A stretch of DNA of 64,000 nucleotides. It comes from Myxococcales bacterium. GTDB taxonomy: Bacteria; Myxococcota_A; Polyangia; Polyangiales; DASUME01. A program made the translations under genes and the position numbers. Position 1 is the stretch's first letter. Each line of letters starts with the position of its first letter. The DNA is taken from assembly GCA_047601445.1 (NCBI GenBank), contig JASGJH010000001.1, positions 6,784,001-6,848,000 on the forward strand, read 5' to 3'. A model generated the notes under the pieces. It had not been told where the DNA came from. It was given only the letters and a program-made list of their open reading frames with translations, and did not search any database. Below, piece after piece: positions 29,601 through 64,000 of the stretch.

Positions 29601-29806
29601 GGAGCGAGGGCGGCGAGGTGCGTGCGCCGATGGCCATCTGCGTGATCGGCGGCCTCTTGACGTCGATGGTGCTGACGTTGGTGGTGGTGCCGGTCGCCTA
29701 CTCGTTGACGGAATCGATGCTGCACACGAGGCCGGCCCTGTGGCTCAAGGCGCGCGCGGTGGGCGCGCGGGGTGCCGAGGCAGAGATCGAAGGGAGTGCG
29801 CAGTGA
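26681..29806 (+). CDS. RND efflux permease (AcrB/HAE1 family), copy 1
   Basis: [46 protein letters not shown]. Confidence 0.96.
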   Translation: MRPADVFIRRPVFAVMLVAALVVLGLVSYPRIGVDLFPDVEYPVVTVVVTYPGADPETMESKVADPIEEAINSLAGIKALRSTNMEGTTQVTVEFELDAELSIDRAVQEIRDRVSAIQNDLPDGIDPPVVQKFDVGAAPIMSIALAGKLDARALTTLAEKVVKERIQRVPGVGGVELIGGRDREIHVAVDAGKLSGLGLTVQDVADAIRAQNVSLPAGTFDRDVREITAKTRGDVKTAREVSEILLPGTQGGGVRVGDVASVLDAMERADSSSALDGRTAIALFVRKQSGANTVAVSGAVRQALAELEPRITREGASLAVPTDDSTYIKHSIRDVQFDLVFGGLLAAAIILLFLRDWRATLISAVAIPTSVVGTFAFMNWLGFTFNNMTMLALSLSIGVLIDDAIVVIENIHRHLERGNSPAKAASDGAAQIFLAVLATTSSIVAVFVPVATMRGIVGRFFYQFGITVSVAVTLSMLVSFTLTPMLSSRFLGTAHGAPPSRLGRGLEVVLRAMDQRYGRVVGWALDHRVFTLAVAALALTASLATARRLRTEYMPSEDRAQLNLQIELASGSSLAATTAVTEAVATDLRKHVPGVAHTFATVGAGSQGRRNVGEIQLTLVPSKQRAFHQDQLMVWLRQRLGRVANARITVQSIPPMGGQASRAQPIQFFVRGPDIDELVRSTDGLEAELSRIKGFVDLDTTYRGGKPELAIHIDRGAAASLGVSVADVANTVRILMAGSPVSEIKDGVETHDIVVQLSDVDRQKVESLANMQVRSASGLLVDLSNIVHVRHGQGPSQIEREARQRQITLLAGLEGLTLGEASKLVQDTARRVVPGALVTGFAGLAETMNESFVAMGVSLLLAVVFVYMILAAQFDSFVQPLVIMLSLPFSLVGAFGALHLAGQTLNVFSMIGVIMLMGLVTKNAILLVDFANQQRAGSADLKRVLIDAGVARLRPIVMTTAAMVFGMIPVAAAWSEGGEVRAPMAICVIGGLLTSMVLTLVVVPVAYSLTESMLHTRPALWLKARAVGARGAEAEIEGSAQ

Positions 29807-31293: not shown

Positions 31294-31318
31294 TCGCCGC
31301 AGGCGCGTGAGGGCACCG

Positions 31319-34300: not shown

Positions 34301-34378
34301 CTGACCTTGATCCTGGTGCCGGTGGCTTACTCATTGATGGAAGGGCGACGGGGTAGGCGCGACTTGGTGGAGCGCTGA
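31319..34378 (+). CDS. RND efflux permease (AcrB/HAE1 family), copy 2
   Basis: [42 protein letters not shown]; colinear with copy 1. Confidence 0.96.
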
Positions 34379-34433
34379 GAGTCGAGCCGCGCTTGGCGCG
34401 GGTGGCTCCGACGTTGCGGCTTCTTGTTTGGGC

Positions 34434-47329: not shown

Positions 47330-47983
47330 ATGGACCTGCTTCTCATCGACGATCACGCTTTGGTGCGTGAAGGAATCCGGGCACTCGCGGACGCCACCGG
47401 GTTGTTTGGGCACATCCTCGAGTGCGGTTCTCTCGCGCATGCCTTGGACACGGCCCGCACCGAGCGCGCGCGCATCGGGTTCGTGATCCTCGACCTCGGA
47501 CTGCCGGACGCGGTGGGCTTCGACGCTCTCGTGCGCCTGCGCGAGGCACTGCCCGAGGCACCCATCCTGGTGGTCTCGGGGGGCGACACGCCGACCGTGA
47601 TCGACACGGCTTTCGAGCTGGGTGCCCGGGGCTATCTGCCCAAGTGCTCCTCGCCCACGGCGCTGCGCCTGGCGATTCAGTCGGTCTTGGGGGACGAACG
47701 CTACGTACCCCCGCAGCTGCTGGGGCACGGCGGGGCCGCGCGGCGACCCAGCACGCCGGCTGCGAGCCCGGCCAACCTCGAGCGCCTCACGCCGCGCCAG
47801 AACGAGGTGTTGAAGCTGCTGGCCAAGGGCTACGCGAACAAGGAGATCGCCAACGCCCTGGACCTCAGCCTCTCCACGGTGCGCATCCACGTGAGCGCCG
47901 TGCTCGAGCGGCTCGGTGTCGAAAACCGTACGCAGGCCGCCATGTGCTCCACCGCGCAGGTCCTGTTGCGCAGCCCCGCTTGA
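47330..47983 (+). CDS. NarL/LuxR-family response regulator, copy 1
   Basis: IDDH, LDLGLPD, YLPK, LTPRQNEVL...NKEIA...TVRIHVS. Confidence 0.95.
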   Translation: MDLLLIDDHALVREGIRALADATGLFGHILECGSLAHALDTARTERARIGFVILDLGLPDAVGFDALVRLREALPEAPILVVSGGDTPTVIDTAFELGARGYLPKCSSPTALRLAIQSVLGDERYVPPQLLGHGGAARRPSTPAASPANLERLTPRQNEVLKLLAKGYANKEIANALDLSLSTVRIHVSAVLERLGVENRTQAAMCSTAQVLLRSPA

Positions 47984-48201
47984 GCGCGCGTTCGGTTGCG
48001 CTGCGTACCGTCGTTCCGTCGCGCGCTTGCCCACTCCCACGACTTACGCGCGCACTAGGACGAATGTCCGATGGGCCGTACGGATGGCCGATTGCATCGG
48101 TGCAGTGACCACGGCCTGCTTGTCTAGCTGACGCTTTCGCTTATAGCGCCGTGTTAGCGTTGGTCCGACACGCGCGAGTTTGCGTGGGTCAGGCAAACGG
48201 T

Positions 48202-49464
48202 ATGCAGCAGCACTACGCGTTCTTTCAAGTCATTCAGAACTACCTCCAGCGGGCCGCGGAGGTCATCGAGATGCCTCCCGACACCTCGGCGCTCCTGGCG
48301 CAGCCCAAGACCGAATTGATCGTGCACTTCCCGGTGCGCATGGACAGCGGACAGCTGCGAATCTTCACCGGCTATCGCATTCAGCACAACAACATCCTCG
48401 GTCCTTACAAGGGCGGCATCCGCTACCACCCCGACGTGAACCTCGACGAGGTGCGCGCGCTGGCTGCCATGATGACCTGGAAGTGCGCGCTGATGGATGT
48501 TCCGTTCGGCGGTGCGAAGGGAGCGGTGCAGTGCGATCCCCGCGCGCTGTCCGAGGCCGAGCGCATGCGCTTGACCCGCCGATTCACGCACGATTTAGGG
48601 GATAATCTGGGTCCCGATCACGACATCCCCGCGCCCGACGTGGGTACGGGCGCGCAAGAGATGGCCTGGCTCATGGACACGTACATGAACAGCGTGGCCG
48701 CCAACCAGAAGAATGCCGTGCGCGCCGTGGTCACCGGCAAACCTCTCGCCTGCGGCGGCTCGCCTGGGCGGGTGAAAGCCACCGGGCAGGGCGTGGCGCA
48801 TTGCGTGGTCGAGTGGGCGGGCGAGCACGGGGTCAAGCTCGAAGGCGCGCGGATGACCATCCAGGGCTTCGGCAACGTGGGGTCCCACGCCGGGCTCGCG
48901 CTGCAGGCCATGGGCGTGAAGCTGGTGGCGGTCAACGATCACAGCGGTTCGCTGCGAAATGATCAGGGCATCGACGCGGTGGCGCTGGCAAAGCACGTGT
49001 CGATCCACGGCGGGATCGCCGGCTTTCGACCGGCCGAGCCCGTGTCGCGTGAGGACTTCTTCGCGACGCCGGCGGACTTCTTCATTCCGAGCGCGCTCGA
49101 GAACCAGGTGGGTGAGGCCGAGGCCAAGCTGCTCGAGGTCAAGCTGGTGGCCGAGGGTGCCAACGGTCCCGTGAACCCCGCAGGCGAAGCGGTGCTGTCC
49201 GAGCGCGGCATCGAGGTCATTCCGGACATCTTGGCCAATGCCGGTGGCGTCACGGTGAGCTACTACGAATGGCTGCAGAACAAGCGCAACGAGCGCTGGA
49301 CGATGCAGGATGTCGAGCACAAGCTGGCGGCCGCGATGATGCGCGGCTATCGCGCCGTACGCGAGATGGCGCACGAGAGGCGCGTGCCGATGCGCAGCGC
49401 GGCGTACTGCGTGGCGTTGAAGCGCCTCGCCGATTGCTATCACCACCGTGGAGTCTTTCCCTGA
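48202..49464 (+). CDS. gdhA: Glu/Leu/Phe/Val dehydrogenase (glutamate dehydrogenase)
   Basis: GPYKGGIRY, MTWKCA, PFGGAKG, DIPAPD, QGFGNVG, EGANGP, ANAGGVTVSYYEW. Confidence 0.93.
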   Translation: MQQHYAFFQVIQNYLQRAAEVIEMPPDTSALLAQPKTELIVHFPVRMDSGQLRIFTGYRIQHNNILGPYKGGIRYHPDVNLDEVRALAAMMTWKCALMDVPFGGAKGAVQCDPRALSEAERMRLTRRFTHDLGDNLGPDHDIPAPDVGTGAQEMAWLMDTYMNSVAANQKNAVRAVVTGKPLACGGSPGRVKATGQGVAHCVVEWAGEHGVKLEGARMTIQGFGNVGSHAGLALQAMGVKLVAVNDHSGSLRNDQGIDAVALAKHVSIHGGIAGFRPAEPVSREDFFATPADFFIPSALENQVGEAEAKLLEVKLVAEGANGPVNPAGEAVLSERGIEVIPDILANAGGVTVSYYEWLQNKRNERWTMQDVEHKLAAAMMRGYRAVREMAHERRVPMRSAAYCVALKRLADCYHHRGVFP

Positions 49465-49473
49465 GCTCTCCCT

Positions 49474-50130
49474 ATGGATTTGCTTCTCATCGATGATCAT
49501 CGGCTGGTGCGCGATGGCATTCGAGCCATCGTCGAGGCCACTGGGCTGTTCACTCGAACCATCGAGTGCGGCTCCCTGGCCAGCGCGCTGGCTCGGGTGG
49601 ACAGCGACGGCGACCAGATAGGCTTCGTCATCCTGGACCTGGGGCTGCCCGATGCGTCGGGCTTCGAGTGCCTTATCCGGGTCAGAGATGCGCTACCGGG
49701 GGTGCCCATCCTGGTCGTGTCGGGCGAAGATCAGCGCGAATCCATCGACTCCGCGTTCGACCTCGGAGCGCGCGGTTACCTGCCCAAATCCTCGTCCCCC
49801 ACCGCCTTGCGCCTGGCCATCGAATCGATCCTCGGCGACGAGCTGTACGTGCCTCCGCAGCGCCTCGGCCACCTGGGACGCGCGTCTCAGAACGACGAAG
49901 GAAGCCCGCCGCCTCCCGAGCGTGGACTCCTGACGCGACGTCAATGCGAGGTGCTGCGGTTGTTGGCCAAGGGCCGCACCAACAAAGAGATCGCCGAGAT
50001 CATGGGGCTCAGCCTGTCCACGATACGCATCCACGTGAGCGCAGTGCTCGATCGGCTGGGCGTCGAGAACCGCACGCAAGCCGCGACGTGCCCGGCGGCG
50101 CGCAGATTTCTTGGCGGTGGTCCGACCTAG
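49474..50130 (+). CDS. NarL/LuxR-family response regulator, copy 2
   Basis: Same motifs as copy 1 and clearly paralogous (MDLLLIDDH, IGFVILDLGLPDA, SSPTALRLAI, LGVENRTQAA). Confidence 0.95.
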   Translation: MDLLLIDDHRLVRDGIRAIVEATGLFTRTIECGSLASALARVDSDGDQIGFVILDLGLPDASGFECLIRVRDALPGVPILVVSGEDQRESIDSAFDLGARGYLPKSSSPTALRLAIESILGDELYVPPQRLGHLGRASQNDEGSPPPPERGLLTRRQCEVLRLLAKGRTNKEIAEIMGLSLSTIRIHVSAVLDRLGVENRTQAATCPAARRFLGGGPT

Positions 50131-50185
50131 AGGTCGTACTAGGAGTTCTGTCCGTCTACACCGTACGACTTGCTCGCCGTAAGAG

Positions 50186-51514
50186 ATGAGTATGCGAGCA
50201 TCGTTGGAACCCAGGAGTCATGGGACGAACAAGACGACCTTCGATCCGCAGCAGGAGCGCGCGATCGAGTACCTGCGGCGGGAGGCGCGACGGCGGTGCA
50301 CGGCCGATGGACGGCCGCTCGGCTTTCAGGCGTTCATGGTAGGCATGGGACACGGCGTGCAGGAGCTCGTTCCGCGCACGCCCGAGGTGTTCTCCAACCT
50401 ACTGGCGCTGGCCGCGCTGGGAGGGCTGGATCACCCGAGCGTGAGCTCACTCTGCCATTACCTACTCGGCTCGTTTCGAGACCTTCATGCCGACGGACTC
50501 TACCGCTTCTTCCGCTCGGCGCGGCTGAGCGGTGACACGGACTGCACCGGGCTCGCGGTGCGTGCGCAGATCGAACTCGGAGAGCTCGACCCCACTGACG
50601 CGGCGGGCGCGCGCGAGCTCAAGCAATTCACTGACCGGCTGCTGGGCTGCGCTTCCATCGCCAGCACGGCGTCGGCCGACAATCGCGTACTGGGCGTCGA
50701 GAACGGCGAGCTGCACCGCCGTGTGATCAAGCTGACCCCGCACGACCACGCCGGTGCAGACCTGGTAGGTGATCGCGGGCTCATGCACGATCCGGTCGCG
50801 TGCTGCCACGCGCTCTACCCGTTGCTGGCGGAGCTCCGCGCCGGTGCGCGACGCTCGGACGTGCTGGTGCGACTTCGCGAGCAATGGATGGATGAGCCTG
50901 GCCCACGGCTCGGCCTGACCCACGCCGACTCGGTGGTGGCCGCCAGCATCCTCCACGTGCTGCGACACCTCTCTTCAGGAGCTTGGCGCCAGGGCACGAG
51001 CCTCTATGCACCACCCGAGCTGTTCCTGTACGCGCTGAGCGAGCTGCTGCGGGAATTCCCTGAGTTGGATCACGCCTTGGTGGGAGCGCGCAGCGTGCTG
51101 CAGCACGCGCTGCTCGAGCGACGGCACGAAGCGCGTCGAGCCGGGGCCTTTCAAGTAGCCTTGCGGGCGAACGTGGCGCTCAACCTGGGGCTCGATCCCG
51201 AGCCCGAGCGCCGTGGGTTGCGCCGAGCCCAGCGCGCGGACGGGGGATACTCGGGCTACAAGGCACTCTATACGTTCAACACTGCCCAGGCGAGCGTGGT
51301 CTACTTTGGCTCCTCGCCCGTGACCACCGCGTTCGCGATCAGGGCGCTCTCGGAGCCGCGTGCACCTCTGCAGCGAGGAAGGACGGGCTGGTTCGACCCC
51401 GTCGCTCGACGTCTAGGCGAGTTCCTGCGGGATTGTCACGGTTCGTGGCCCGCGCCCTCGCACGGCCTCGCGCCACTCGCGAAGCGCAAGCCCGCGCGCG
51501 ACGCACTGCGCTGA
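50186..51514 (+). CDS. Putative stand-alone class II terpene cyclase beta-domain (prenyltransferase/squalene-cyclase fold) protein
   Basis: DxDxT-like DTDCT, DPVACCHAL, GTSLYAPPELFLY, QW-like AQRADGGY, YFGSSPVTTAFAIRAL; same motif order as the beta-domain of HAD-type drimane cyclases (pattern recognition). Confidence 0.6.
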   Translation: MSMRASLEPRSHGTNKTTFDPQQERAIEYLRREARRRCTADGRPLGFQAFMVGMGHGVQELVPRTPEVFSNLLALAALGGLDHPSVSSLCHYLLGSFRDLHADGLYRFFRSARLSGDTDCTGLAVRAQIELGELDPTDAAGARELKQFTDRLLGCASIASTASADNRVLGVENGELHRRVIKLTPHDHAGADLVGDRGLMHDPVACCHALYPLLAELRAGARRSDVLVRLREQWMDEPGPRLGLTHADSVVAASILHVLRHLSSGAWRQGTSLYAPPELFLYALSELLREFPELDHALVGARSVLQHALLERRHEARRAGAFQVALRANVALNLGLDPEPERRGLRRAQRADGGYSGYKALYTFNTAQASVVYFGSSPVTTAFAIRALSEPRAPLQRGRTGWFDPVARRLGEFLRDCHGSWPAPSHGLAPLAKRKPARDALR

Positions 51515-51607
51515 CCCGCTCTTCCCGACTAGGGGCTGTTCCTAATTCCGGGGCTCTTTTGAGGCGGCCGGGGGGCGATGGCGTCAGGCGTGCTCCTGTT
51601 CGTCATC

Positions 51608-51648
51608 GTGTTCGTCCTCGTCCTCGTAAGACGTAGTCGTGCGCGTGC
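51608..51648. repeat. Left arm of 41-bp inverted repeat (CGTNNN-hexamer based) flanking the four-helix-bundle gene
   Basis: GTGTTCGTCCTCGTCCTCGTAAGACGTAGTCGTGCGCGTGC matches the reverse complement of 52037-52077 at 39/41 positions. Confidence 0.95.
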
Positions 51649-51653
51649 CCGGT

Positions 51654-51992
51654 TCACCGGCACATTTTGCTGAGCATGGAAACCACGCGCACGCAGAGAG
51701 TCTTTGCGGTGGTCGCGGTTTCCGGCTCGACGAGTGCCTGCATGCGGAGCAGGTCAACGATTGCGGCGCACTCCATGGCAGAACCTCGCGCAATGGCATG
51801 GTAGCGAGCGCGCTCCCGGTCGGAGGTCTTGCCGGCTCCCTCTGCGATGTTGAGGGGAATCGAAATGGTTGCGCGTTTGAGCTGGTCCGAGAGCTCGGCG
51901 TGGCCGCGGGGCATCTTCTCGAGGATTTGAAAGGAGAGCGCGGCAAATTGCAGAGCGCATTGGTAAACGTCGAGCCGTTCGAAATCTAGCAT
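51654..51992 (-). CDS. Four-helix-bundle protein (23S rRNA intervening-sequence protein / Avd-like family)
   Basis: 112 aa; FERLDVYQ, LSDQLKRATISIPLNIAEG, AIARGSAMECAA, VSMLSKM. Confidence 0.92.
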   Translation of the reverse strand: MLDFERLDVYQCALQFAALSFQILEKMPRGHAELSDQLKRATISIPLNIAEGAGKTSDRERARYHAIARGSAMECAAIVDLLRMQALVEPETATTAKTLCVRVVSMLSKMCR

Positions 51993-52036
51993 GCCATCTG
52001 TATCGGCCGAACCTCGCATTGGTTGCGCCATTTCGC

Positions 52037-52077
52037 GCACGCGCACGACTACGTCGCACGAGGACGAGGACGAACAC
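52037..52077. repeat. Right arm of 41-bp inverted repeat flanking the four-helix-bundle gene
   Basis: GCACGCGCACGACTACGTCGCACGAGGACGAGGACGAACAC. Confidence 0.95.
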
Positions 52078-52114
52078 ATGACGCTCACGAGAACGGCGCC
52101 TTGGAGCTGCGGGG

Positions 52115-52866
52115 TCACGCTACCCAGAGACAGACGCACGCAAGTTGCAGCAGAGCCAGGTAGCTCTGCGCAGTCTTCTCGTACCGGGTTGGGATGGCCC
52201 GGAACCTCTTCAGATTGTGGAAGAAGACCTCCACCAAGTAGCGCTCGCGGTACAGGGTTCGGTCGAGCCGGCGTCCGTTGTACTTGCGAGTGGGGTTGTT
52301 GCAGATGACGGGTTTCATCCCCTGCGCGCGGACTGCCTCGATAATGCGGTCTGCGTCATAAGCTGTGTCGGCAATGAACGCCCGCCCCCGAGCGTGCGGT
52401 AGAAGCTCTTCCGCCATCGTCGAGTCGTGCTGTTGTCCAGGAGTCAACGCGACGTGCAGTGGGCGTGCCTTAGCATCGACAACGGTGTGGATCTTCGTTG
52501 AAAAACCTCCTCGAGAGCGGCCCAAAGCATTGGATTGGACCCCCCTTTTCCGCCCGAAGCGTCTTGGTGCGCCCGAACGACAGAGGCATCAATGATTGAG
52601 CCCGTTTCATCCACGTCCAGCTGCAGCGCCTTGAAAATCTTCTCCCAGGCCCCCCGCTCGGCCCAGTTGTAGAATCGGTTGTACACTGAGTTCCAGGGGC
52701 CGAACCGTTCGGGCAAATCACGCCACGGACAGCCCGTCTTTGCCCGGTAGAGCACGGCGTCGATGAACAACCGGTCTCCGAGCTTCGAGGCTGGTCCGGG
52801 GCGGCGCTTCGGAAACTGTCCCTGGAGGCGCTCCCATTGCTGGTCGGTCAGAGCGTGGCGGTGCAC
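52115..52866 (-). CDS. IS5-family DDE transposase, two ORFs joined by a probable programmed -1 frameshift
   Basis: OrfA: LTDQQW, GCPWRDLPERFGPWNSVY, IIDASVVRAH. OrfB: GRSRGGFSTKIH, IADTAYD, YRERYLVEVFFHNLKRFRAIPTRYEK. AAAAGGGGGG slippery run at ~52540-52549. Confidence 0.93.
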
Positions 52867-52928
52867 AGCAAGCTTTGATCACGATCCGGATCTCAGCACA
52901 AATTAGCGGCAAGAATTAGGAACAGCCC

Positions 52929-55900
52929 CTAGACCAGCCGAACGGCTAGCCCTTGCGCCTCGTAGATGCGCTTGCCGTCGACCCAGAGCGAGCCCGCTCC
53001 GACCACGGTGGTGTGACGGTCGCCTGTCTCGATTCGCGTGATCTCCACGTCCACCTCGACCAGGCGATTCTCCGGCACGACCTGTCCGCGATACTTCCAG
53101 GTCATCGGCACCCCGCTGGCCTGGGTCTCGAAGCGTCCGGCCGACCGCGCGTCGAGGTCCAGCGAGATCGCGAGCGCCTCGAGGGCTTGGAGCAGCGCCT
53201 GTAGACCGATCGAACCAGGCTGCACGGGATCTTGGTAGAAGTGTGCTTTGAAGAACCACTGGTCTGCGTGGATGGCGGTCTCCGCACGCAGGCGTCCCAG
53301 CGCGAGCTTGCCACCTTGCGGCCAGAGACCGGTGATGCGGTCGATCACCCGCAGCCGCTCGCTCGGAAGACGTAACGTGTTCCCGTAGTAAGGCGAGGGC
53401 TCTCGAGCCAAGTCGATCTGCGTGATGCTCGGCTCCCGAAGGCAAGCCCGCTGCTCGGCGGACGTGGGCAAGCCGACCTGGTCGGCCAGGGTTTCGCGCG
53501 GAAAAAAGCCGAACACGGTCTCCAGGGAGTAGAGCAGGCGCTCACCTGCGCGCATCTGGACGTCGAACCCGAAGATGCTGATGCGATCGGCGCGCGAGAC
53601 GGACTTGAGCGTGGTCTCGATCGTGACGGTGCCCACGTCCGGAGGGAGCTCGGCGTGCAGCATGCCCTTGCCGTCGAGGTTGCGGAAGTAGAGGTTGTCC
53701 TCCGACTGCAGTGCGCCGCCGACGTAGGAGGCGAGCCAACCGCAGGGCTGGAGAGCCGTTTCGAGCAACACCGCGAAGGGCATACTGGGGGCGTTGTTCT
53801 CGGCGAAATACCAGGCGTCCGCAGGGACGTCGTACTCGATTTCGGCGCGGCTCCCGACCTGCATGCCGCCGATGGGACCGCGCACGTCGCGCACGCGCGA
53901 GAGGAAGTGGTAGGGAGGTGCGGGCAAGCGGGCCACGCGCCGAGGCCCATCGAAGCGTGCGTACATGGGACCGAACGCGCTGGATGGCTTGCCCCAGGCG
54001 CAGGCCATGAGCGAGGCATAGTCGAAGCGAAACCCATCGACGACCGCGACCGGGCGCTCGTCGACCGCCGCTTCGAGCGCCAAGCGACCGGGGTCGAGCG
54101 GCCACGCGGGCACCAGGCGGAGCGCCATGCGCGTGCAATGAAAGGCCTTGTGACCGTCCACTGAGCCGAGGATATCCGCGTAGAGAGTGGGTGCGGGGCC
54201 ACCGAGGATCTCCTCGACGAAGATCTCGTAGACCACCTCACTTGAGGCCGGCGTGGCCTGACCGCGGCAGCGCAGCACGTAATTGTGATCCTGGGCGGGC
54301 TCGAAGCGTGAGCCGTCGTGATCCAACGTGTGGCCCAGCGCGATCATCATGATCTGCATGGCTTGCAAGCCGCCTTCGAACATCAAGGTGCCCGGCATGC
54401 ATGGGTCGTTCTTGAAGTGGCCCCTGAAGAACCAGTGATCCGGCTTGAGCGCGAGGCGTGCCCGCAAGTAGCCGCGGCCCCAGGGGCCGCCGCGGGGGTC
54501 GAAGTGGGAGACGTCGTCGAACATGCGCATGCGGCCCGCGGGAAGCGTGGGCGTGCGCGAGTGGGTCTGCGCGCGTGCGAAGGCAGGGCCCAGACAGTCC
54601 ACCAGGCGGCCCTCGGTCAAAGCGCGGATGTCGTCGTGGTCGAAGCGCGTTCGTTCGCACAGGGCCCGAGCCGGTTCGAGCTGCGCCTCGTCGCGCGCCA
54701 CGGGCACCGCCGTCTCGGCGGACCAGAGTACACCTGCGGAGCGCGCGAGTTCCTGATCGGTGAAGAAGCCGGCCTGGCCATTGCGTACGCTGAAGCGCAG
54801 CTCGTCGTTTATCCAGCAGTCGTAGTGGAAGAAGAACAGGCGGACCCCGTCTTGCTCGGCGTGTCCATCGACCGTGATCTGGTAGTGCAGGGTCTCGCCC
54901 ACCTTGGGCAACTCACCGAAGCTCTTGAGCTCGCAGCCGAGCAGGCGGTAAACGCGCTCGCCGCGATTCACGAAGTCGGCGCCGAGCCACGAGATGAGCA
55001 TCAGATCCGCCTGCCCGGACTCGACCATCAAACCGGCGGGCATGCGACCTTCGTACAGATACCAGGCATCGGCGCGCACATCGGTTTCGGTCCAGATGGT
55101 ACCGAGACCAAGTGTGCCGGGCTCGCCGTCGATCCCGAGCACGCGGTCGGCCAGCAACAGCGGCGGTTCGGGCATGCGCACTTGACGTGCGTGCTGATCC
55201 TGTTGGGCGAAGCTCGGGCCGAAGATCTCGGAGATGCGGCCGGAGGCGTGGATCTCGAGCTCGGCGCGACCGAACGAAGGTCCGCTGGGGGGCCTGCGGA
55301 TCGGCTGGGAGCGCGGGCTCGGTGGCTTGCGGGCGACAAGCGTGGCGTTCGTGAGCGGCACGCGGTTCGCGCTTTCCGTGGTCGCGTGCTTGGCCATGGG
55401 CAGCGTGACTGGAGCGCGGACCGGAGCGGCTGGCGTAACGACCGCGAGCGCAGGTAAGGCGGCCGCCTCGCACCCGGTTGTGCCGCCGCGAGACGTGGGT
55501 CCGCCGAAGGTGCCTGGGGCTGCTGTTTGCTGGGCAAAAACGAGGTTCACGAAGCGCGTTTGGGTCTGCGCCTGATGGGTGATGAACGCTCGGTGCAGGG
55601 TCGAGAGCTGTTCGTGATGGGCGGCCAGTTGTGCGAGCGCTCGTGTGCTCGGCGCGCGACCCGGGGCGGCACCGAACGCCGTTTGGTCGGACTGGTTGCG
55701 GTGTGCGGCGGGATCCGGACGCACTACGGACTGCCACCATAGCGGAGGCAACGGTTCCTCGGCGCGTAAGGGAGGGGGTTCAGCCTCACGTGGCGCCGCA
55801 GGGAGCGCGCTCGGATGTCCGGGCACCCGCAATGTGCGCTGATGGGCAAGGGATGGTCCGGCTGAGGGGCGCAGTGGCTGCGCATGGAGGCGCCCGTGCA

Positions 55901-58900
55901 GAAGCGTGAGGTCAATCTCCACGCCGGCTACGAAGAGCTGCGCGGCGGCCTCGACTGCGTGCAGCAGCGAAGAGCGGCCGTAGCTGTCGAGCGAGATCGC
56001 CAGGTGCTCGCGTTCGCCAAGGATTTGGCCGATCCATTTGGTACAGCCCGCGTGGGGCCCGTGCTCCACGAAGACCCGCACTCCGTCTGCCCACGCACGC
56101 TCGATCAACGCAGGGAAGTCCACCGTGTTCATGGCCTGACCGGTCAACGCGTCGGCGACGGATCCGGTGTCGGCGACATAGCTCGCGCAGGTAGCATGGG
56201 TATAGAAGCGCACTCCGGGCACGGCCGCCGTGGGGCGCGTGTGCAGGGCTCGCCAGCGGCTCTCGAATTCACGGGCCTCTGGGCAGTGCATGATGAAGTC
56301 GTAGCCTGGTGCGCGCGTGGCGCGGCGTCCCAGGCGCGCGGCCACACGGGCGCAGGCGGCGGGCTCGCCAGCGAAGAACATGTCCTCGCGTGTGTTGATG
56401 ATGGTGAGTCGAACGCGCGGTTCGGTCTCGAGCGCCGCGCGGACCTCGGCGATTGGGGCCCGGACGCGCCAGATCGCCCACTCGGCGCGCTGGGAGGAAT
56501 CGAGCTGCCAGGCCCGCCGCAGGCAGCGCAGTTCGCCGCAGAGCTCCGAGTCGTAGACGTGCGATGCCTCGACCGAGCGCCGGAAGCCGTCGAGATCACA
56601 CCAGGCGTCGAGCGCGAACATGGAGTTCGTCTCGCCCGAGCAGTAGCCGATGGCGGCCGTCGGCCGCAGGCCCAGCGTGCGGCGCGTGAGCTCGGTGTGG
56701 AGCTGGCACAGGAAGGACGAACCCCACAGCTTCTCCAGTGGCGTGGAGTCCTGGCTACGTGAAGGATCGGCGGCGTAGACCCAACCCGCGGCATCGAACA
56801 GGCTGTGTGCGCGCGCGGCGAAGTGATCGACGAGATCGGGAAAGGCCAGCGCCAGATCGCGGCCCATTTGTGGGTAGGCGCCGGCGGCGCCGGTGTACAC
56901 GAACGCGAGCTCTCCGTGGAGCGGCCGCGTGCTCATGAAGACGCCGTCCTCGAGGGCGCCTTCGCATTCGTCCTTGCCCCAGGTGCGCAGGCGCCGAATC
57001 GCGCGCTCGATGCGGGCCTCGTAGTGGGCGGCGCTGTCGGCGACGATGCCGAGGCGCAGCGAGCCTCGAGGGGCCACCTTGGGCGCGAGCTCGCGGCGCT
57101 CGAGGGCGCTCAGGAGGCCGTCGACGTCGTCGGCGGCGGCCACGCCGAAGTGCGGTCGCTCTGCGAGAAACACGGGAGCTGCGCGGGAGCCGGGCACACT
57201 GCAGACCACGGTGCTGCTACGCCCGCCGCCAAGCGAGGACACCTGCACCTCGGCGCTGCGCTGCTCGGCGCGTGGAAGCCAGGGCATGGGCCCGTGCGGG
57301 GAAGGTAGGGTGCGCTGCGCGCAGGCGGCCACGGCCATTGCGATCTGCAGCAAGCCCGAGGCTGCGTGGGCATGGCCGATGTGCCGGGGGGCGCCGTGGG
57401 AACTCTCGGCAGCGAGCACGAAGGAACCCACTGCTTCTCCAGGATCGACCAGAGCCAGCACCGGATCCCCTGCATGCATGGCATCGGCATGGCGCTTGAG
57501 GACGAGCATGACGGCGGCGTCTCCGGGCTCGTGCTGTGCCACCGGGAGCAGCTCCCGCGAGGCCGTCTGTTGCACGATCTCGCATGTCATGTCGACCGCG
57601 CCCACCACGGCCGCGTCGATCTCGCCGGCGCGCAGCGCGCGCACGGCCAGCTCCAGAGCGATCACGCCGGAGCACTCCTCGGCCGATACCGTGAAGCTCG
57701 GTCCCTCGAAGCCGAGCTGCTGGTTGATGCGATTGGCCACGATGTTGGGCATGGCGCCCACGGCCGCGGACGCGGACAGCGGCTCCGAGGAGAGGCTCGG
57801 GGGAAGCTTCTCGATCCACGCGCGCGATCCGCGATAGCGCACGGCGTGCCGCGCGACCTCGGCGTCGCACTGCATCCCCACCAGTACACCGGTGCGCTCA
57901 CGCGGCAGGTGTCCGACGACGTCCGAAAGATCCTGCAGCGCCGCCAGCAGCAAGAGTTGCTGGGGCAGGGCGACCTGCAGGTCGGCAGGGGGCGTGCGTA
58001 GGTTCGTGGCATCGAGCTCGAAGCTGTCGATGGCGACCCCGGCGCTGGGCCGAACGCCCGAGTCGAACCAGTGGGCGACGAGATCGGTGGCTGCGCCCGC
58101 CGCGCCTGAACGTACGACCTGCGCCACCACGGCGACCTGCCGCTCGTGCGAGACCGGTGTCGACGTGCGCGGTAGCGCGCGCGGACGGGGGCGGAATTCT
58201 TCGAGCACGAGGTGGGCGTTGTTGCCGCCGAAACCAAAGTTGCTGATGGCGGCCCGCCGAATTCCTGCGCAGGTCCAGGGCTCCTCCTCGTGCAGCAGAC
58301 GGAAGGCGCGATCGCCGAGCTCCGCACAGGGAACCTCCGCGTGCAGGGTGGCAGGGCGGACCTCGTGCTTGAAGGCGGCTAGCACCTTGAGCACGGCGGC
58401 GCCCCCCGAGGCGGTGATCAGGTGGCCAAGGTTCGATTTCAACGAGCCAATCGGCAAATCGGTGGATCCTTCGAACACGCTTCGCATGCTGCGCAGCTCG
58501 GTGTTGTCCCCGAGCATGGTGCCGGTCGCATGGCACTCCACCAGCGACACGTCGCGTGGCGCGAGACCGGCGTGGCGGTAGGCCGCGCGCAGGGCCCGGA
58601 CCTGTCCGGCTTCGTCCGGCACCATCAGGCCTCGGCTGCGCCCGTCGTTGGAGAGCCCGATGCCGCGGATCAGGCCGAGTACTGGCTTCCCCTGGGCCAG
58701 CGCGTCCGATACCCGCATCAGCACCACGAGCGCCGCGCCTTCGGACGGCACCAGTCCGTCGGCGTCGCGGTGGAACGGCCGACTCTGTCCAGTAGGGCTC
58801 AGCGCCTTGAACGCGGTGAACCCCGCGTGCAGAAACAGGCTGTCCGCGTGGTTGACGCCGCCAGCTAGCATGAGATCGGCTCGACCGTCCTGTAGTCGAT

Positions 58901-59468
58901 CACAGGCCAGCTTGATCGCATAGAGCGAGGAGGCGCATGCGGCGTCAAGAGCGTAGGCAGCGCCGCCGAAGCCAAGCGCTCGGGCCGCCAGCAGTGCGGG
59001 TAGCCCCGACATGAAGCGGTTGCGCGCGTCCACGCCGCGAGGGGCACCCGACCATAGCTCGATCGCGAGCTCGACCAGTTTGGGCGTTGGATAGCTGAGG
59101 TTCCCGAGCACGAGTCCCGCGCGCGGATGGACATCGCTGTCGTCGAAGCCCGCGCTGCGCATGGCCTCGCGTGCCGCGTGCAGGGTCCACAGGAACACGG
59201 GGTCGAGGCCCGCAAGGCTCGCAGCGTCGAGGGCGAAGCCATGCGGATCGAACTGCGCGTCGAAGTCATCGCGGACGTAGCCACCCACCTTGGTCGCCAC
59301 GGCGGCCGCGAGCTGAGCCTCGTCGACGTGAGACGCGATCCCCCAGGCCCCCGGTGAGGGGCGCCGTAGCGCGGAGCGCTTGCCGCGCACCAGGGACCAC
59401 AGTGCCTCGGGAGTCAGCGCACCCGGTAGCACACAACCTTGACCTACGATCGCGATGGGCTCAGACAT
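52929..59468 (-). CDS. pfa3: PUFA-synthase-like iterative PKS subunit: KS-CLF-AT-(DH'-DH)x2, no C-terminal acyltransferase
   Basis: DAACASS / ECHATGT / SNLGH KS; CLF (SAEECSG); AT GYCSGE; FabA-like HFKNDPCMPG and HFYQDPVQPG. Confidence 0.9.
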   Translation of the reverse strand: MSEPIAIVGQGCVLPGALTPEALWSLVRGKRSALRRPSPGAWGIASHVDEAQLAAAVATKVGGYVRDDFDAQFDPHGFALDAASLAGLDPVFLWTLHAAREAMRSAGFDDSDVHPRAGLVLGNLSYPTPKLVELAIELWSGAPRGVDARNRFMSGLPALLAARALGFGGAAYALDAACASSLYAIKLACDRLQDGRADLMLAGGVNHADSLFLHAGFTAFKALSPTGQSRPFHRDADGLVPSEGAALVVLMRVSDALAQGKPVLGLIRGIGLSNDGRSRGLMVPDEAGQVRALRAAYRHAGLAPRDVSLVECHATGTMLGDNTELRSMRSVFEGSTDLPIGSLKSNLGHLITASGGAAVLKVLAAFKHEVRPATLHAEVPCAELGDRAFRLLHEEEPWTCAGIRRAAISNFGFGGNNAHLVLEEFRPRPRALPRTSTPVSHERQVAVVAQVVRSGAAGAATDLVAHWFDSGVRPSAGVAIDSFELDATNLRTPPADLQVALPQQLLLLAALQDLSDVVGHLPRERTGVLVGMQCDAEVARHAVRYRGSRAWIEKLPPSLSSEPLSASAAVGAMPNIVANRINQQLGFEGPSFTVSAEECSGVIALELAVRALRAGEIDAAVVGAVDMTCEIVQQTASRELLPVAQHEPGDAAVMLVLKRHADAMHAGDPVLALVDPGEAVGSFVLAAESSHGAPRHIGHAHAASGLLQIAMAVAACAQRTLPSPHGPMPWLPRAEQRSAEVQVSSLGGGRSSTVVCSVPGSRAAPVFLAERPHFGVAAADDVDGLLSALERRELAPKVAPRGSLRLGIVADSAAHYEARIERAIRRLRTWGKDECEGALEDGVFMSTRPLHGELAFVYTGAAGAYPQMGRDLALAFPDLVDHFAARAHSLFDAAGWVYAADPSRSQDSTPLEKLWGSSFLCQLHTELTRRTLGLRPTAAIGYCSGETNSMFALDAWCDLDGFRRSVEASHVYDSELCGELRCLRRAWQLDSSQRAEWAIWRVRAPIAEVRAALETEPRVRLTIINTREDMFFAGEPAACARVAARLGRRATRAPGYDFIMHCPEAREFESRWRALHTRPTAAVPGVRFYTHATCASYVADTGSVADALTGQAMNTVDFPALIERAWADGVRVFVEHGPHAGCTKWIGQILGEREHLAISLDSYGRSSLLHAVEAAAQLFVAGVEIDLTLLHGRLHAQPLRPSAGPSLAHQRTLRVPGHPSALPAAPREAEPPPLRAEEPLPPLWWQSVVRPDPAAHRNQSDQTAFGAAPGRAPSTRALAQLAAHHEQLSTLHRAFITHQAQTQTRFVNLVFAQQTAAPGTFGGPTSRGGTTGCEAAALPALAVVTPAAPVRAPVTLPMAKHATTESANRVPLTNATLVARKPPSPRSQPIRRPPSGPSFGRAELEIHASGRISEIFGPSFAQQDQHARQVRMPEPPLLLADRVLGIDGEPGTLGLGTIWTETDVRADAWYLYEGRMPAGLMVESGQADLMLISWLGADFVNRGERVYRLLGCELKSFGELPKVGETLHYQITVDGHAEQDGVRLFFFHYDCWINDELRFSVRNGQAGFFTDQELARSAGVLWSAETAVPVARDEAQLEPARALCERTRFDHDDIRALTEGRLVDCLGPAFARAQTHSRTPTLPAGRMRMFDDVSHFDPRGGPWGRGYLRARLALKPDHWFFRGHFKNDPCMPGTLMFEGGLQAMQIMMIALGHTLDHDGSRFEPAQDHNYVLRCRGQATPASSEVVYEIFVEEILGGPAPTLYADILGSVDGHKAFHCTRMALRLVPAWPLDPGRLALEAAVDERPVAVVDGFRFDYASLMACAWGKPSSAFGPMYARFDGPRRVARLPAPPYHFLSRVRDVRGPIGGMQVGSRAEIEYDVPADAWYFAENNAPSMPFAVLLETALQPCGWLASYVGGALQSEDNLYFRNLDGKGMLHAELPPDVGTVTIETTLKSVSRADRISIFGFDVQMRAGERLLYSLETVFGFFPRETLADQVGLPTSAEQRACLREPSITQIDLAREPSPYYGNTLRLPSERLRVIDRITGLWPQGGKLALGRLRAETAIHADQWFFKAHFYQDPVQPGSIGLQALLQALEALAISLDLDARSAGRFETQASGVPMTWKYRGQVVPENRLVEVDVEITRIETGDRHTTVVGAGSLWVDGKRIYEAQGLAVRLV

Positions 59469-62400
59469 GGGCGCTCGCCTGCCGGGGGGCCTCTTCGGGA
59501 GTGCCTCCCGGAATCAAGTACATCTCGCACCCCGCCAGCTCGACCAGCACGGAGCCGTGCGAATCGGTCAGACGCGCGTCGCAGACCAAGTGCTCGCTGC
59601 TCTGGCTGCGCACGCGAAGCTCGCAGCCGACGGTGCCCTGGGTGGGAAGCGGCGCGAATAGGTGGATGGCTTCGATGCGCATAGGCAGGGTGGCACCCAC
59701 GGTCTGCTGGCCGCACAGGATCGCGAGCTGCAGCGCGCCGTCGAGCGCGGCAGGGTCGGTCGACCAGTTCTCCTCCGGCCAATCCAGCTCACGCACACCC
59801 GCGAGATGCGCTCGCGCGCCCTGCGCCGACAGCCCTTCGATGGAGCGCAGCACGTGAAAGTATTCGCCATGGAACAGCATGTGCGAACGATAGGCGTCGA
59901 CCGCGTTCAGGCCTCCGACCAGCGTGTCCTTGGTGAGCCGCGCCTCCGACCGGCTCTCCTCACACACCTCGCTGTTCGCTCGGTAGCAGAGCTCGCCGAC
60001 CTCGTTGCGCAGCTCGAGCTCCGCGCTGTGCTCGTCGAGCCTGCGCGCGGAAAGCGAGAAGCGCTCGGGTTCTTCGCGGTAGCGCGCCAAAGTGATGCCG
60101 CGCAGCACCCGCAAATCCCGCACCGTGATCGCCGATGCGGGGAACAGTGAGCGGCTAAGGCGGGCAAACCACTCGAGCACCAGCACCATCGGTAGCACCA
60201 CCTGGCCGCGAACACGGTGGCTCTCGAGCTGCGGATGAGACTCCGCGTCGACCATGACTTCCGCCGACAGCTGTTGTCGCCTGCCCTTTGCCATCAATCC
60301 ACCGCCGATCACCACCTGCACGTCCGTGCGCTCGGAGAGGGCCAGCTCGTCGACAAAGCAGCGCGCGCCCTCCGCCACCGGCAACAGTGCGATCCCGCGC
60401 GACCGAAAGTGCTCCCTGAGCGTGGGCGTGACCATGCCGCCTTCCCAGGGACCCCAGCCCAGCGCCGCCACGCGGCAGCCATCTCCTCGCACGCGCGCCT
60501 CGGCCGCGGCGACCTGGTTCAGGACCTCGTTGGCCATGGCGTAGTCGGCCTGCCCCGCGTTGCCCTCGCGCGCCGCCACCGACGAGAACATGCACAGCCA
60601 TCGCAGCGGGTCGGAGCGGGTCGCCCGCAGCAACGTCCGCAGCCCTAGCACCTTGGTGTCGAACACATGGGCGAACTGCGCCTCGGTCTTCTTGTCGAGG
60701 AAGGCGTCGGCCAGCACACCTGCGCCGTGGATGAGGCCGCGGATCGGGCCCCAGGCGCGTCGCACCTCGTCGAGCACGAGGTTCAGCGCAGTCTCATCTC
60801 GAATGTCCACGCATGCATAGGCCACCTCGGCACCCGCCGCGGTCAATGCCTGCAGCGTTGCGCGGATCTCTCGGGCGGCCACGATGGTGGCAACCTTCGC
60901 GCCCACCTGTCTCGGCGTGGAGGGCTCGCCTTTGCGCCGGGCCTCTTCGAGCACGAGCCGCTTGAGCTCGCCTTCATCGGTTGCCGCCGCGAGCATGGGG
61001 GGCTCGGTCTCGAGCCCAGTGCGTCCGAGCAACAGTAGGCGCGGTGCAGCCACGCGCGTGAGCTCGATCAGCGAGGCGGCGGTCACACCCCGGGCGCCGC
61101 CTGACACCACGAACACGGCGTCGCGCAGATCGTCTCGTCCGGCGGCGGGAGTGCGAGGCAGGGGAGCGGGCTGACTCACCAGCGTGAAGCGCGATCCCTG
61201 CGCGTCGAGTCCTACCTCGAGCTCCGGTCCGCCCTGCATGAGTTCGTGCGCGATGGCTTGGGCCAGCTCTTCTGGAGAACGTGCGCCACATGCCAAGTCG
61301 ATGGCCTTGAGCGAAGCTTTGGGCCACTCATGGGATGCCGAGCGTGTCAGCGCCGCCAGACCTCCAAGCCAGGCGCGCTCCGCAGCACGTCCGCTCAGTC
61401 CGAAGTCGCCGCCCGTGTCCTGCACAGTCACGAAGAGCCCACCATGCTCGCGAAAACGCGCGGCCACCGCGCGCGCCACGCCGAACGCCTCGCGGTTGAC
61501 CTCGATCGCACCGGCGGCGTCGACGTTGCGCAGACCCGCCAAGACGATCACGCCGGCGGCGCCGGAAAGCGCGGGCCCCTCGGCCTCCGTGATCGCAGCG
61601 ATGCCCTGTGCGCGAAGCGCTTTGATCAGGGCCGTGGAAATGCCGCGGCCGTCCGTCGTGACCACGATGGTTCCAGCTCCGTGTAGGCCAGGCATCGCGA
61701 AGCCGCTCTCGGGCGCAGGGTGTGTACGCACCGCGAGCCGTAAGGGGGCCGGTGCTCCCGGCGAAACCGCTGTCGCTTCGGCGTCGGTGTTTGAGCGAGC
61801 CGGCAGGGCGTTTTCTCCGGCACTCGCGTGTTTCGAGGCCGCGAAGGCCGCGATGATTTGTCCCAGCGTGCGGAGGCTGGTCAAGCTCGCGCTGCTGACC
61901 TCGGGCAGGTCCGGAACGCGGTTGCGCAATGCGGAAAGAATCTCGACGCGCTTGATCGAGTCGATCCCGAGATCGGCCTCGAGATCTAGATCCAAGTCGA
62001 TCATCTCACGCGGATAGCCCGTGCTGTGAGCCACCACCTCGAGAAGGACGTCCTTCAGATCGTTGGCTCGGTTTGCGGTGCCTGCGGCGGCAGACTCGGT
62101 CTGTACGGACGGATGGTCTGCTCGCTCGGACACTGGCGATGGCGCGCCGGGCAGCTGTCGAGCAGACGCATCGCCGTACAACGCAATGATCTGTGCCAGC
62201 GTGCGAAGGTTGGCCAAGCTGGCGCTGCTGACCTCGGGCAGGTTCGGAACGCGGTTGCGCATGGTCGAGAGAATCTCCACCCGCTTGATGGAGTCGATTC
62301 CCAGATCTGCCTCCAAATCCAGGTCCAGCTCGATCATCTCGAGTGGATAGCCCGTGCTCTGGGCCACGACCTCGAGCAGAATCTGCCCCAAATCTCGGCC

Positions 62401-64000
62401 CGCCGTGGCCGCGGCTTCGCCTTGCGCTTGGTGGGGCGCACCGGAGAGTGGCGTCGGCGTGAGTGGCACTGCCGCGCTCGAGTGGCTTCGAACGCCGACG
62501 CTTTCCGCTTGCCCCAACACCTCGGCGATCTGCGCCAGCGTACGCAGGTTGGCGAGCGTGGTGCTGTTCAGGTCGGGCAGGTGAGGGACCCGGCTGCGCA
62601 TGGTGGACAAGATCTCCACGCGCTTGATGGAGTCGATGCCGAGGTCGGCCTCGAGATCCATGTCGAGCTCGATCATCTCGCGCGGATAGCCCGTGCTCTC
62701 CGCCACGATGGTGAGGAAGAGTTCGCCCAGGTCTGCTCGAGCGTGGCGAGTCACCACGATCGAAGGCTCAACAGCAAGTTCGAGCGGAAGCCGGGGTGGG
62801 GGAGCTGCCACCATCGGTGCGGGAGCCGCGCTCCGCGAGGGAGGCGCGACGGTGTCTGCCGCGGGCGCAGCGGTCGATTCTCAAGCCCAGGCTCGCGAAA
62901 GAGCTCTCGACGGCGCGCAAGAAGGCCTGGTGGCTCTCGGCCATGGCCCGCTGGAAGTCCATTTGGGCCGCGATGGTGGGCGCCTGCAGGCGCTGAATGG
63001 CGTCGACCCAGTCGAGTGGCACGGGCGCTGCTGAGAATGTTGACTCGCTGGGCGATCGAGTGGACGGCGCTATCGGAGCTTCGCTCGCTGTGGGCGGCAC
63101 ACTCGACACAGCCATCGCCGGTTCCCCCGACTTGGCTCGGATCGCGGGCACCCTCGTCACCGACGCGCTCGGTAGCGTATTGGTCTCCCGTACGAACACC
63201 CTCGCTCCGACGGCAGGCGGATAGGGTTTGGCGTGGTTGGCGCCGGTCAGCATGATGGTTCCCTTGCCTTTCACGCTCGGCATCTCGGCCAGCTGACGGC
63301 CCTCCCACAGGCCCGCAAAGGTGAGCGGATACCCGTGGGCCGCCAGCTGTCCGAGCGCGCTGTGCCACGCGGTGACGCCATCCTTGCCACGCTGATCGAG
63401 CGCCACGGCCAGGTGGGGTCTACCCATCAAGCAGCGCTGCGTGAGGCGCGTCAGCACGGCGTCGGGCCCGACCTCGATGAACACGCGCGCACCCGCGGCG
63501 TACATGGCCTCGACCTGCTCGACAAAGCGCACGGGTGCGCTCACGGCCGCGGCCAGTTGCGCCCGCAGCTGATCTGGCTCGGCTGGATACTCGGCCGCGC
63601 TGGCGTTGGCGTAACAAGGCACGCTCGGCGTCTGGACCGGAATGCGATCCAAAAATGCCCGGAAAGGCTCGACCGCAGCAGCCACCAGGGGCGAGTGAAA
63701 CGCGGTGGACACCGACAGACGACGCACGCGCAGCCCCGCCGCTTCGAGCGAGCGCTCGGCGCCTTCGATGGCAGCCACGGAGCCCGACAACACGACCTGT
63801 TGCGGGTCGTTGTGATTGGCGAGCACGACCTCCATTCCAAGGACGAGTCGTTCCACCTCCTCGCGCGCGGCGCTGACCGCCGTCATGGCACCCGGTACAT
63901 CGCTCGCATGGGCCATCAGCTCGCCTCGTTGGCGTGCCACGCGCAATCCATCGCCGCGCTCGAGGGCTCCCGAGGCGGTGAGCGCAGTCACTTCACCCAG
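59461..64000 (-). CDS. pfa2: PUFA-synthase-like subunit (MAT-ACPx3-KR-DH), 5' part outside window, 1-bp insertion at ~62881
   Basis: LGEVTAL...AFHS MAT; three LEADLGIDSIKRVEIL ACPs; KR SGGARGVT...DYAMAN; DH HRVRGQVVLP...DGALQ. TTG[A]GAA TCG joins ORFs 62768..63991 and 59461..62814. Confidence 0.88.
61836..62733 (-). repeat. Three tandem intragenic ACP-coding repeats
   Basis: Near-identical STGYP...DLEADLGIDSIKRVEILS...VP.LP...LRTL.QI units at ~62512-62733, ~62170-62394 and ~61836-62061. Confidence 0.9.

Follow-up and report, generated by a model that had tools for sequence, protein, structure and literature searches.

An inverted-repeat-armed four-helix-bundle gene cassette as cargo of an IS5-family element in a Myxococcales genome

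Members of the PF05635/S23p family are scattered across rRNA insertion sites in CPR, according to the available part of a recent report (10.1101/2024.02.27.582315). In 23S rRNA genes, such intervening sequences (IVSs) are described as forming a stem that is excised by RNase III, and the available text treats both the way in which they move as unexplained and the S23p protein as a pentamer without assigned function (PMC4990558). A gene of this family that is looped out by long inverted repeats outside rRNA, as a sequence-only reading had proposed for a Myxococcales genome, raises the question of what kind of element it belongs to and how such an element may spread. Here, we have analyzed this gene within a 64,000-nucleotide stretch of that genome (hereafter the window), together with its homologues in other genomes and metagenomes.

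Anatomy of the cassette and its carrier

The cassette (~500 bp) consists of a 5′ hexamer arm, a promoter-like motif, a four-helix-bundle gene and a 3′ hexamer arm (Table 1). Its arm pair is the top-ranked inverted repeat of the whole window (44 nt at 93%, the next-ranked ones reaching ~70-75%), and the recomputed match of the two arm cores, 39 of 41 positions, agrees with the sequence-only reading, as do the gaps of 5 bp between arm and stop codon (51654-51656) and 44 bp between arm and ATG (51990-51992), which follow from the codon positions. Other details had to be revised: 7-8 CGTNNN units with one 7-nt phase step were counted per arm instead of the ~10 clean units claimed, and the proposed outer closure by AGGCG/CGCCT, although its 5 bp can pair, is missing from the second genomic copy and was dropped as a part of the cassette, the pairing probably being due to chance. 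The cassette strand is predicted to fold with -257 kcal/mol (z = -7.6; 0 of 100 shuffles as good), and DNA folding parameters give an identical stem.

The boxed gene exceeds the cut-offs of both PF05635 (83.8 bits, cut-off 33.8) and TIGR02436 (76.2 bits, cut-off 24) in profile searches, and the structure predicted for its product (pLDDT 95.8) has four helices, which confirms the family assigned to it earlier. PF05635 was the only family matched in the Pfam profile search, with no HUH tyrosine transposase. The model is closest to XCC0516 and BT_0352 (pentameric; TM 0.85-0.89, with 2GSC at 0.89), and it also resembles Avd (TM ~0.8) at an identity of 11-13%. By analogy with 2GSC and Avd, the cassette protein may form a homopentameric ring. 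PF05635 has been linked to Avd in the accessible portion of one paper (PMC10053308), and Avd is characterized in part of another as a positively charged pentamer partnered by an RNA stem-loop, which it binds (10.1101/2023.10.23.563531). With a dN/dS of 0.06 between its two genomic copies, the gene is evidently under strong purifying selection at the protein level.

Table 1. Coordinates of the element, the cassette and their parts (window positions)
Feature	Position	Strand	Basis and remarks
IS5-family element, 1398 bp, with the cassette as cargo	51532..52929	-	Repeats, profiles, second copy; CTAG target, TA duplicated at 51530-51531 and 52930-52931
Right terminal inverted repeat, 17 bp, perfect match to left	51532..51548		Repeat search, copy comparison
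Left terminal inverted repeat	52913..52929		Target CTAG overlaps the stop codon of the adjacent polyketide/PUFA-synthase-like gene
IS5 transposase orfB, C-terminal DDE part	52115..52525	-	PF01609; NF033580 140.7 bits (cut-off 110)
IS5 transposase orfA, N-terminal part	52444..52866	-	PF13340; NF033580 120 bits (cut-off 110); orfB in -1 frame relative to orfA
A4G6 run	52540..52549	-	Likely site of a putative -1 frameshift fusing orfA and orfB; also in copy 2
3′ arm of cassette	51601..51651		Degenerate CGTNNN array, core 51608-51648; repeat search and fold
5′ arm of cassette	52034..52083		Core 52037-52077, upstream of the promoter-like motif; repeat search and fold
Four-helix-bundle gene, 112 aa, PF05635/TIGR02436	51654..51992	-	Profile searches, structure model, dN/dS
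-10-like box (GGCCGATAC) of promoter-like motif	52000..52008	-	7 nt upstream of ATG; no Shine-Dalgarno visible
-35-like box (GCGCAACC) of promoter-like motif	52021..52028	-	Common to dprA, radA, comF, comEA-like gene, recN, Tad genes

The cassette is situated between the stop of a split transposase and the right end of an insertion sequence (IS), and terminal repeats that match at 17 of 17 positions enclose both. The frames of orfA and orfB and the A4G6 run fit a -1 frameshift in both genomic copies of the IS with its cassette, the second of which (approximately G000:C1:9377946-9379340, G000 being the source genome) is 91% identical to the first. The two copies lie at unrelated sites, each with 17-bp ends and a TA duplication in CTAG. 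Judging by the labels of the nearest transposase relatives that have names, the host belongs to Polyangia-type myxobacteria. The right end follows the transposase at +589 and +586 nt here, compared to 17-65 nt in most of those related IS5 elements for which a pair of ends was recovered. We consider it almost certain that the cassette is cargo of a complete IS5-family element; at this locus it lies inside the IS and is thus not free-standing, contrary to its former description as a self-contained module. The divergence between the two copies is mosaic, with a dS of 1.03 for the gene and 0.04-0.07 for the transposase, a contrast that would fit recombinational exchange of the cassette, while the arm cores are ~95% identical between the copies even though the synonymous sites of the gene are saturated.

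In the surroundings of the element, large polyketide/PUFA-synthase-like genes occupy positions 52929-62814 (-) of the window, and the IS is inserted in the TAG that ends the last of them, which stays unbroken; copy 2 is likewise inserted in TAG at the end of an ORF. A 442-aa ORF without Pfam or NCBIfam match (50186-51514, +) is convergent on the IS. In addition, two paralogous response-regulator genes flanking a glutamate-dehydrogenase-like gene and a stretch of 4.6 kb in which membrane-transporter-like genes are duplicated in tandem (71-79% identical) were observed at 47330-50130 and 26500-34400.

Arms and carriers across the protein family

To date, 150 profile matches have been collected (homologue set L001-L140), of which 126 have full flanks and, with one duplicate removed, 114 lie below 90% identity. 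An inverted-repeat score of at least 18 was found at 64 of these 114 homologues compared to 1 of 1500 control ORFs of the source genome, the controls being long genes rather than size-matched small ones and the relatives not being independent of each other; direct repeats reached the same score at 11 of the 114. The earlier proposal that gene and inverted arms form a module tied to the protein family is therefore well founded. The partner arm of the same locus beats all foreign arms in 47 of the 64 cases and ranks in the top tenth in all 64, whereas the commonest arm hexamer takes 33 different forms among 55 loci; as judged by these comparisons, the arms evidently remain complementary while the repeat unit changes between loci. 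The repeat period follows the protein clade: the clade of the query (84 rows, 55 of them with arms) has a period of 6 and the canonical clade one of 7-8, although these clades come from a quick tree of few columns with 52 of 111 forks open. Compensatory changes, which the sequence-only reading had suggested looking for, are absent from the window copy, whose two arm mismatches are uncompensated; among relatives, a change common to both arms was found in L327 and L031, and the same change in a single arm in L105. Host-wide homogenisation of repeats could mimic co-variation of the arms.

The arms also show a strand preference, a crude count over 55 loci giving 35 CGT-rich, 8 ACG-rich and 12 tied cases, and L039 and L341 display a clean reversal of polarity. 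The 5′ arm of many homologues stops ~10 nt short of the start, beside the ribosome-binding site, and is therefore transcribed there. A third PF05635 clade (L015-L023, L025, L135, L140; G016, G021, G031, G039, G179 and others) has no flanking inverted arms; its genes have upstream hexamer runs, often occur as convergent or divergent pairs and reach up to 16 copies per genome.

Arm sequences are not confined to cassettes. The 22-nt arm core has 29 matches in the source genome, compared to 0 and 2 in two shuffles; 25 solo matches were counted, 20 of them outside predicted ORFs, and they often lie just after stop codons in both orientations, no strand rule being found for the solo arms of this genome. 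Arm hairpins in both orders are present as well, and so are truncated genes that keep arms and motif. The alternative that the repeats are generic, genome-wide elements unlinked to the family is thus half right: the arm sequence is dispersed, yet the arms are linked to the family. Several related loci of the source genome may be mentioned separately. A truncated PF05635 gene with motif (G000:C1:6696428-6696800, -) has inverted arrays of 15-nt units nested in GGCGAC hexamer arms, and two internally deleted cassettes of one family (G000:C1:8341500-8342050 and 7302050-7302700, -) have kept the 5′ arm and the motif and lost all codons but the first 8 or the last ~30, an intact relative being L010. 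At G000:C1:2169700-2169790 and 5605200-5605350, a second, unrelated dispersed repeat occupies intergenic sites where congeneric genomes hold cassettes.

Carriage by an IS is not restricted to this locus. Both IS ends were seen around transposase and gene for IS630 elements in L031 and L072 and for IS5 types in L069, L062, L076 and L077, so the cassette is carried by other IS5 and IS630 elements that captured it independently. In L069, L062 and L076, transposase and gene lie together between hexamer arms that reach directly up to the two IS ends; in L036, L035 and L129, the arms likewise enclose both, at most one IS end is visible, and those of L036 and L035 are contiguous with one terminal repeat. 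A transposase domain was detected in a neighbouring ORF at 16 of 79 loci, all in the clade of the query, with one ORF tested per side and the figure possibly inflated by short metagenome contigs. None of 30 loci in a second neighbour set, 27 of them from other clades, had one at a slightly stricter E-value. Among 96 related IS5 transposase loci, L152 is the only one besides the two copies described here with a PF05635 gene, a distant homologue that occupies, together with a hexamer array, the same place in an IS with both ends seen. In another genome, related IS5 copies are ~245 nt longer ahead of their right end (L161:2403-2646), and no PF05635 match was found in this extension.

Deletion derivatives have been detected in the congeneric genome G007, which has several internally deleted copies, one keeping both IS ends and both arms, and in L105, where IS ends, arms, motif and a frameshifted gene are present and the transposase is absent. 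The junction between arm and transposase is crossed by contigs of X1, X2 and X5 (three of the four sequencing runs examined, from three metagenome studies), the X5 contig spanning it over 886 nt at ~93%; these runs consisted of contigs only, and all shares were below 0.2. From the only RNA library (X20) came a 199-nt contig that lies within the ORF, has 1 difference and leaves the transposase uncovered, showing neither transcription nor ends. A precisely empty copy of this IS was not found in the 96 related loci, 9 congeneric genomes and 4 runs, two candidate joints in run contigs being internal and weak. The presence/absence variation anticipated earlier does occur at orthologous sites: two cassettes of G002 sit between genes that directly neighbour each other in the source genome, where no cassette separates them, these empty sites being too diverged for the junctions to be read. 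Among viral contigs, 8 pattern matches included no relative, and a plasmid search returned 8 distant cyanobacterial matches. Other genomic settings comprise a heptamer-armed PF05635 cassette between cas6 and cas4 (L024:1430-1900), cassettes between gap and pgk (L089 and L109) and one directly downstream of a comEA-like gene (L060).

A promoter-like motif common to the cassette and DNA-uptake genes

In close homologues, the space between 5′ arm and gene is occupied by a motif of the form GCAAC, 16 nt, CGATA, 7-9 nt, ATG, and its strict pattern precedes 21 of the 114 homologues compared to 2 of 2869 control ORFs. By using a matrix trained on 29 homologue upstream regions, none from the source genome, 24 sites of at least 20 bits were found in that genome at the trained spacer of 12, compared to 1-6 at each of 21 other spacers. 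Such sites precede all four members of the query's clade in this genome as well as radA, recN, comF, a comEA-like gene, an operon whose last gene is RecD2-like, another with Flp, peptidase and TadE genes, cpaB-cpaF and a secretin N-terminal gene, and the site of dprA scored 18.3 bits; approximately half of the 20 site regions examined had other or no annotation. In this genome, comEC, comM, ssb, both recA genes and the transposase have no such motif upstream (scores -7 to 8.6, with comEC, comM, ssb and recA at 1.2-8.6), and radC scored 11.9. The second recA gene has comM immediately upstream (G000:C1:4632083-4634561, -).

The association extends to relatives. A motif scoring at least 14 was found upstream of dprA in 20 of 29 relatives in addition to the source genome (30 loci returned out of 38 genomes with a match) and upstream of radA in 14 of 21 loci (source genome and three 5′-truncated loci excluded), 13 of these 14 having it 35-41 nt from the match start, and controls with wrong spacer or antisense gave 0 matches for both sets. 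A matrix rebuilt from 27 dprA sites, which is not fully independent because the sites had been chosen with the first matrix, scored at least 12 in 29 of the 114 homologue upstream regions (controls 2 and 0). Outside the order, 3 of 28 genomes have the motif before dprA, and it is missing there from both Myxococcus dinghuensis and Citreicoccus, the two named Myxococcia; being present in only 29 of 114 upstream regions and rare before dprA outside the order, it cannot explain the whole protein family. Overall, there are ~24-33 strong GCAAC-16-CGATA sites in the source genome, and the motif was seen before dprA and radA across the order (L237-L256, L263-L314).

We take the -10 box to be similar to the sigma-28 consensus and the spacing to be similar to that of ECF promoters. 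No FliA/WhiG sigma profile match over the cut-off was found in the source genome, the best candidate being a FliA-like gene at 1855435 (117 bits, cut-off 189.6) with a weak upstream site (15.4 and 8.8 bits), and none of 103 sigma genes had a strong motif site upstream (best 12.1). The motif is probably a real promoter of a regulon of the DNA-uptake/recombination type, and we infer that it may be read by an alternative sigma factor which switches on DNA uptake and recombination. Several motif-preceded genes encode unknown secreted proteins (with PEGA, MopE, FG-GAP or RCC1 repeats). Tad pili serve prey killing in Myxococcus and can act in DNA uptake, as stated in the available parts of two studies (PMC12075869; PMC8513845). 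Considering the secreted-protein genes at many top sites and the role of Tad pili in prey killing, the regulon may be linked to predation or stress and be broader than competence.

Possible routes of spread and relation to known systems

The position of the motif bears on how the arms may act. Since it lies at 52000-52028, in the gap between 5′ arm and ATG, the gene's own RNA would start downstream of the 5′ arm and lack it, and the earlier claim that the cassette transcript forms a duplex is not sustained in this form: a ~45-bp duplex would then arise only in read-through RNA from the transposase. Together with the location of arms at IS ends in other elements, this suggests that the arms matter mainly as DNA. 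The six loci in which the arms enclose transposase and gene (L069, L062, L076, L036, L129, L035; the first four right at the IS end) and the clean reversal of polarity in L039 and L341 count in favor of a role at the DNA level, whereas the polarity bias of the arms, as strand-specific binding predicts, and the transcription of the 5′ arm in many homologues count against it.

On this basis, a tentative scheme may be outlined. Incoming transforming DNA is single-stranded and handled by DprA and RecA, according to part of a recent article (PMC12378983). Transcription driven by the motif would yield a leaderless RNA from about the ATG, with the 5′ arm missing, and the gene would be switched on during DNA uptake. 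In the entering single strand, the arms might fold back on each other and leave the cassette or the whole IS in a loop, which would bring the flanks together and allow DprA/RecA/RadA to install the insertion at a homologous site that is empty. The protein, made at uptake and forming a ring, would bind the repeat hairpin and protect it or hand it on, and the IS copies would serve as a vehicle and as multi-copy homologous landing pads. As a side effect, read-through RNA duplexes may be cut by RNase III, like rRNA intervening sequences. The best explanation that we can offer, one that we hold tentatively and at somewhat less than even probability, is a selfish cassette which travels on insertion sequences and takes advantage of natural transformation; the loop-out route as such is conjectural and, at most, equally probable.

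Among the alternatives, the one that survives best, and which we judge unlikely, is the RNA model of the sequence-only reading. It assumes that the arms pair in read-through RNA, here the transposase message, that a cut by RNase III excises or silences the ORF, that the pentamer binds the repeat RNA and that the internal promoter is a lineage-specific add-on. Its precedents are the Coxiella IVS, presented in the available text as lying between complementary sequences and being cut out by RNase III (PMC4990558), and the RNA stem-loop that Avd binds in the accessible part of the structural work (10.1101/2023.10.23.563531), and the strong fold of the cassette strand (z -7.6), the 5′ arm directly before the ribosome-binding site in many homologues, the biased polarity and the frequent solo arms just past stop codons point in the same direction. 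These indications are offset by the motif inside the arms at 29 of 114 loci, by arms at the very ends of several ISs, outside the likely transposase promoter, and by solo arms after stops in both orientations; moreover, the only RNA run offers just the 199-nt contig inside the ORF.

Somewhat less probable still is that the protein modulates transformation, either as an element-borne inhibitor that prevents incoming empty alleles from purging the element or as an accessory factor of the host, with the arms as its operator or as members of a REP-like family. While this would leave unexplained both the matched inverted arms around the gene across clades and the retention of both arms in deletion derivatives, it would accommodate the promoter-like motif common to dprA and radA, the 25 solo arm copies, mostly intergenic, and the known carriage of transformation inhibitors by mobile elements, as noted in the part of the article available (PMC12378983). 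We regard as improbable an accessory transposition factor, for which the hexamer arrays would be subterminal binding sites and the ring protein would bridge IS ends or chaperone the transposon: the arms are contiguous with both terminal repeats in L069, L062 and L076 and with one in L036 and L035, and ISs captured the cassette repeatedly, but 63 of the 79 loci tested have no transposase neighbour, the carrier transposases are unrelated (IS5, IS630), only 1 of 94 other related IS5 loci has the gene and, in the window element, the transposase lies outside the arms. That the arms are functionless by-products of slippage or template switching in a repeat-rich genome, with the gene captured by an IS by chance, is very improbable in view of the arm scores (64 of 114 homologues, 1 of 1500 controls), the ~95% identical cores despite saturated synonymous sites and the period that tracks the protein clade, even if the genome-wide dispersal of the arm family and the armless third clade (L015-L023, L025, L135, L140) would suit it.

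A search of positions 49000-55000 against Rfam gave no match, and both 23S genes, which match the 23S model over 2967 bases, lie ~1 Mb from the cassette; the nearest RVT_1 match is >2 Mb away in the genome. The independence from rRNA and from DGR reverse transcriptases that had been claimed is thus borne out. An identity as rRNA intervening sequence was rejected, as the cassette is not inside an rRNA gene, and so was one as the DGR accessory Avd, no reverse transcriptase being adjacent. The element is real and is neither an IVS nor a DGR by membership, yet it has an IVS-like build and is carried as an IS5 passenger. With IS5-family ISs that have passenger genes and with mobile insertion cassettes, it has in common a DDE transposase with a putative frameshift, 17-bp ends, a TA duplication in CTAG, cargo before the right end and transposase-less derivatives; presumably, the labels IS427 subgroup, tIS and MIC apply to an IS5 element with a passenger gene. 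It differs in its cargo, an IVS-type gene boxed by a hairpin, which also occurs on unrelated IS families and in most cases without an IS, and whose arms sometimes extend the IS ends. In REP/REPIN-RAYT systems, an HUH tyrosine transposase gene lies between inverted copies of a repeat, further copies of which are scattered over intergenic regions. The cassette gene is likewise boxed by an inverted repeat that is dispersed intergenically, singly and as hairpins, but it encodes no HUH transposase, no catalytic role of its product is known, and its repeats are tandem hexamer arrays.

The ORF-bearing 23S rRNA IVSs of Coxiella and Leptospira also have an S23p gene looped by complementary arms and, like the cassette, are sporadic and apparently horizontally spread, with the Coxiella ORF reported as decaying (PMC4990558); the cassette, in contrast, lies outside rRNA and inside an IS5 element, has hexamer-array arms with its own promoter-like motif within them, and its protein is under strong purifying selection. 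Avd of DGRs (4DWL, 8UB7), a pentameric ring that binds a nucleic-acid stem-loop in the accessible parts of two sources (10.1101/2023.10.23.563531; PMC10053308), has the same fold as the cassette protein, which differs by its low identity and by having no reverse transcriptase within 2 Mb. Where competence regulons depend on an alternative sigma factor (SigX, SigH), a single motif likewise precedes dprA, comF, a comEA-like gene, radA and pilus genes, as far as the text available covers them (PMC12378983), whereas here comEC, comM, ssb and recA are without the motif and a mobile cassette also carries it. In the open full-text literature, no paper was found that ties the PF05635 family to repeat arms, IS cargo or the GCAAC-16-CGATA motif; ISfinder, subscription journals and supplements, which were outside this scope, may list such IS passengers. 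What the present analysis adds, from sequence comparison, is the carriage by complete IS5/IS630 elements and the likely link, through the promoter motif, to DNA-uptake and recombination genes.

For the S23p/PF05635 family, whose structures have been solved while a function is lacking, this locus may offer a time of action, given by the motif, and a vehicle, given by IS5 and IS630 elements, and the two make the function of PF05635 directly testable. The motif also outlines an apparently undescribed regulon of DNA-uptake, recombination and Tad genes in Polyangia-type myxobacteria. In a broader reading, which is possible but on balance unlikely, PF05635 cassettes would be a distinct class of nuclease-free and recombinase-free selfish elements that home by natural transformation, the arms folding the insert out and the ring protein, timed by a competence promoter, escorting it into empty homologous sites such as operon gaps, IS copies and rRNA genes. 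If true, this would explain the spread of rRNA intervening sequences and the origin of dispersed 6-7-nt repeat arrays.
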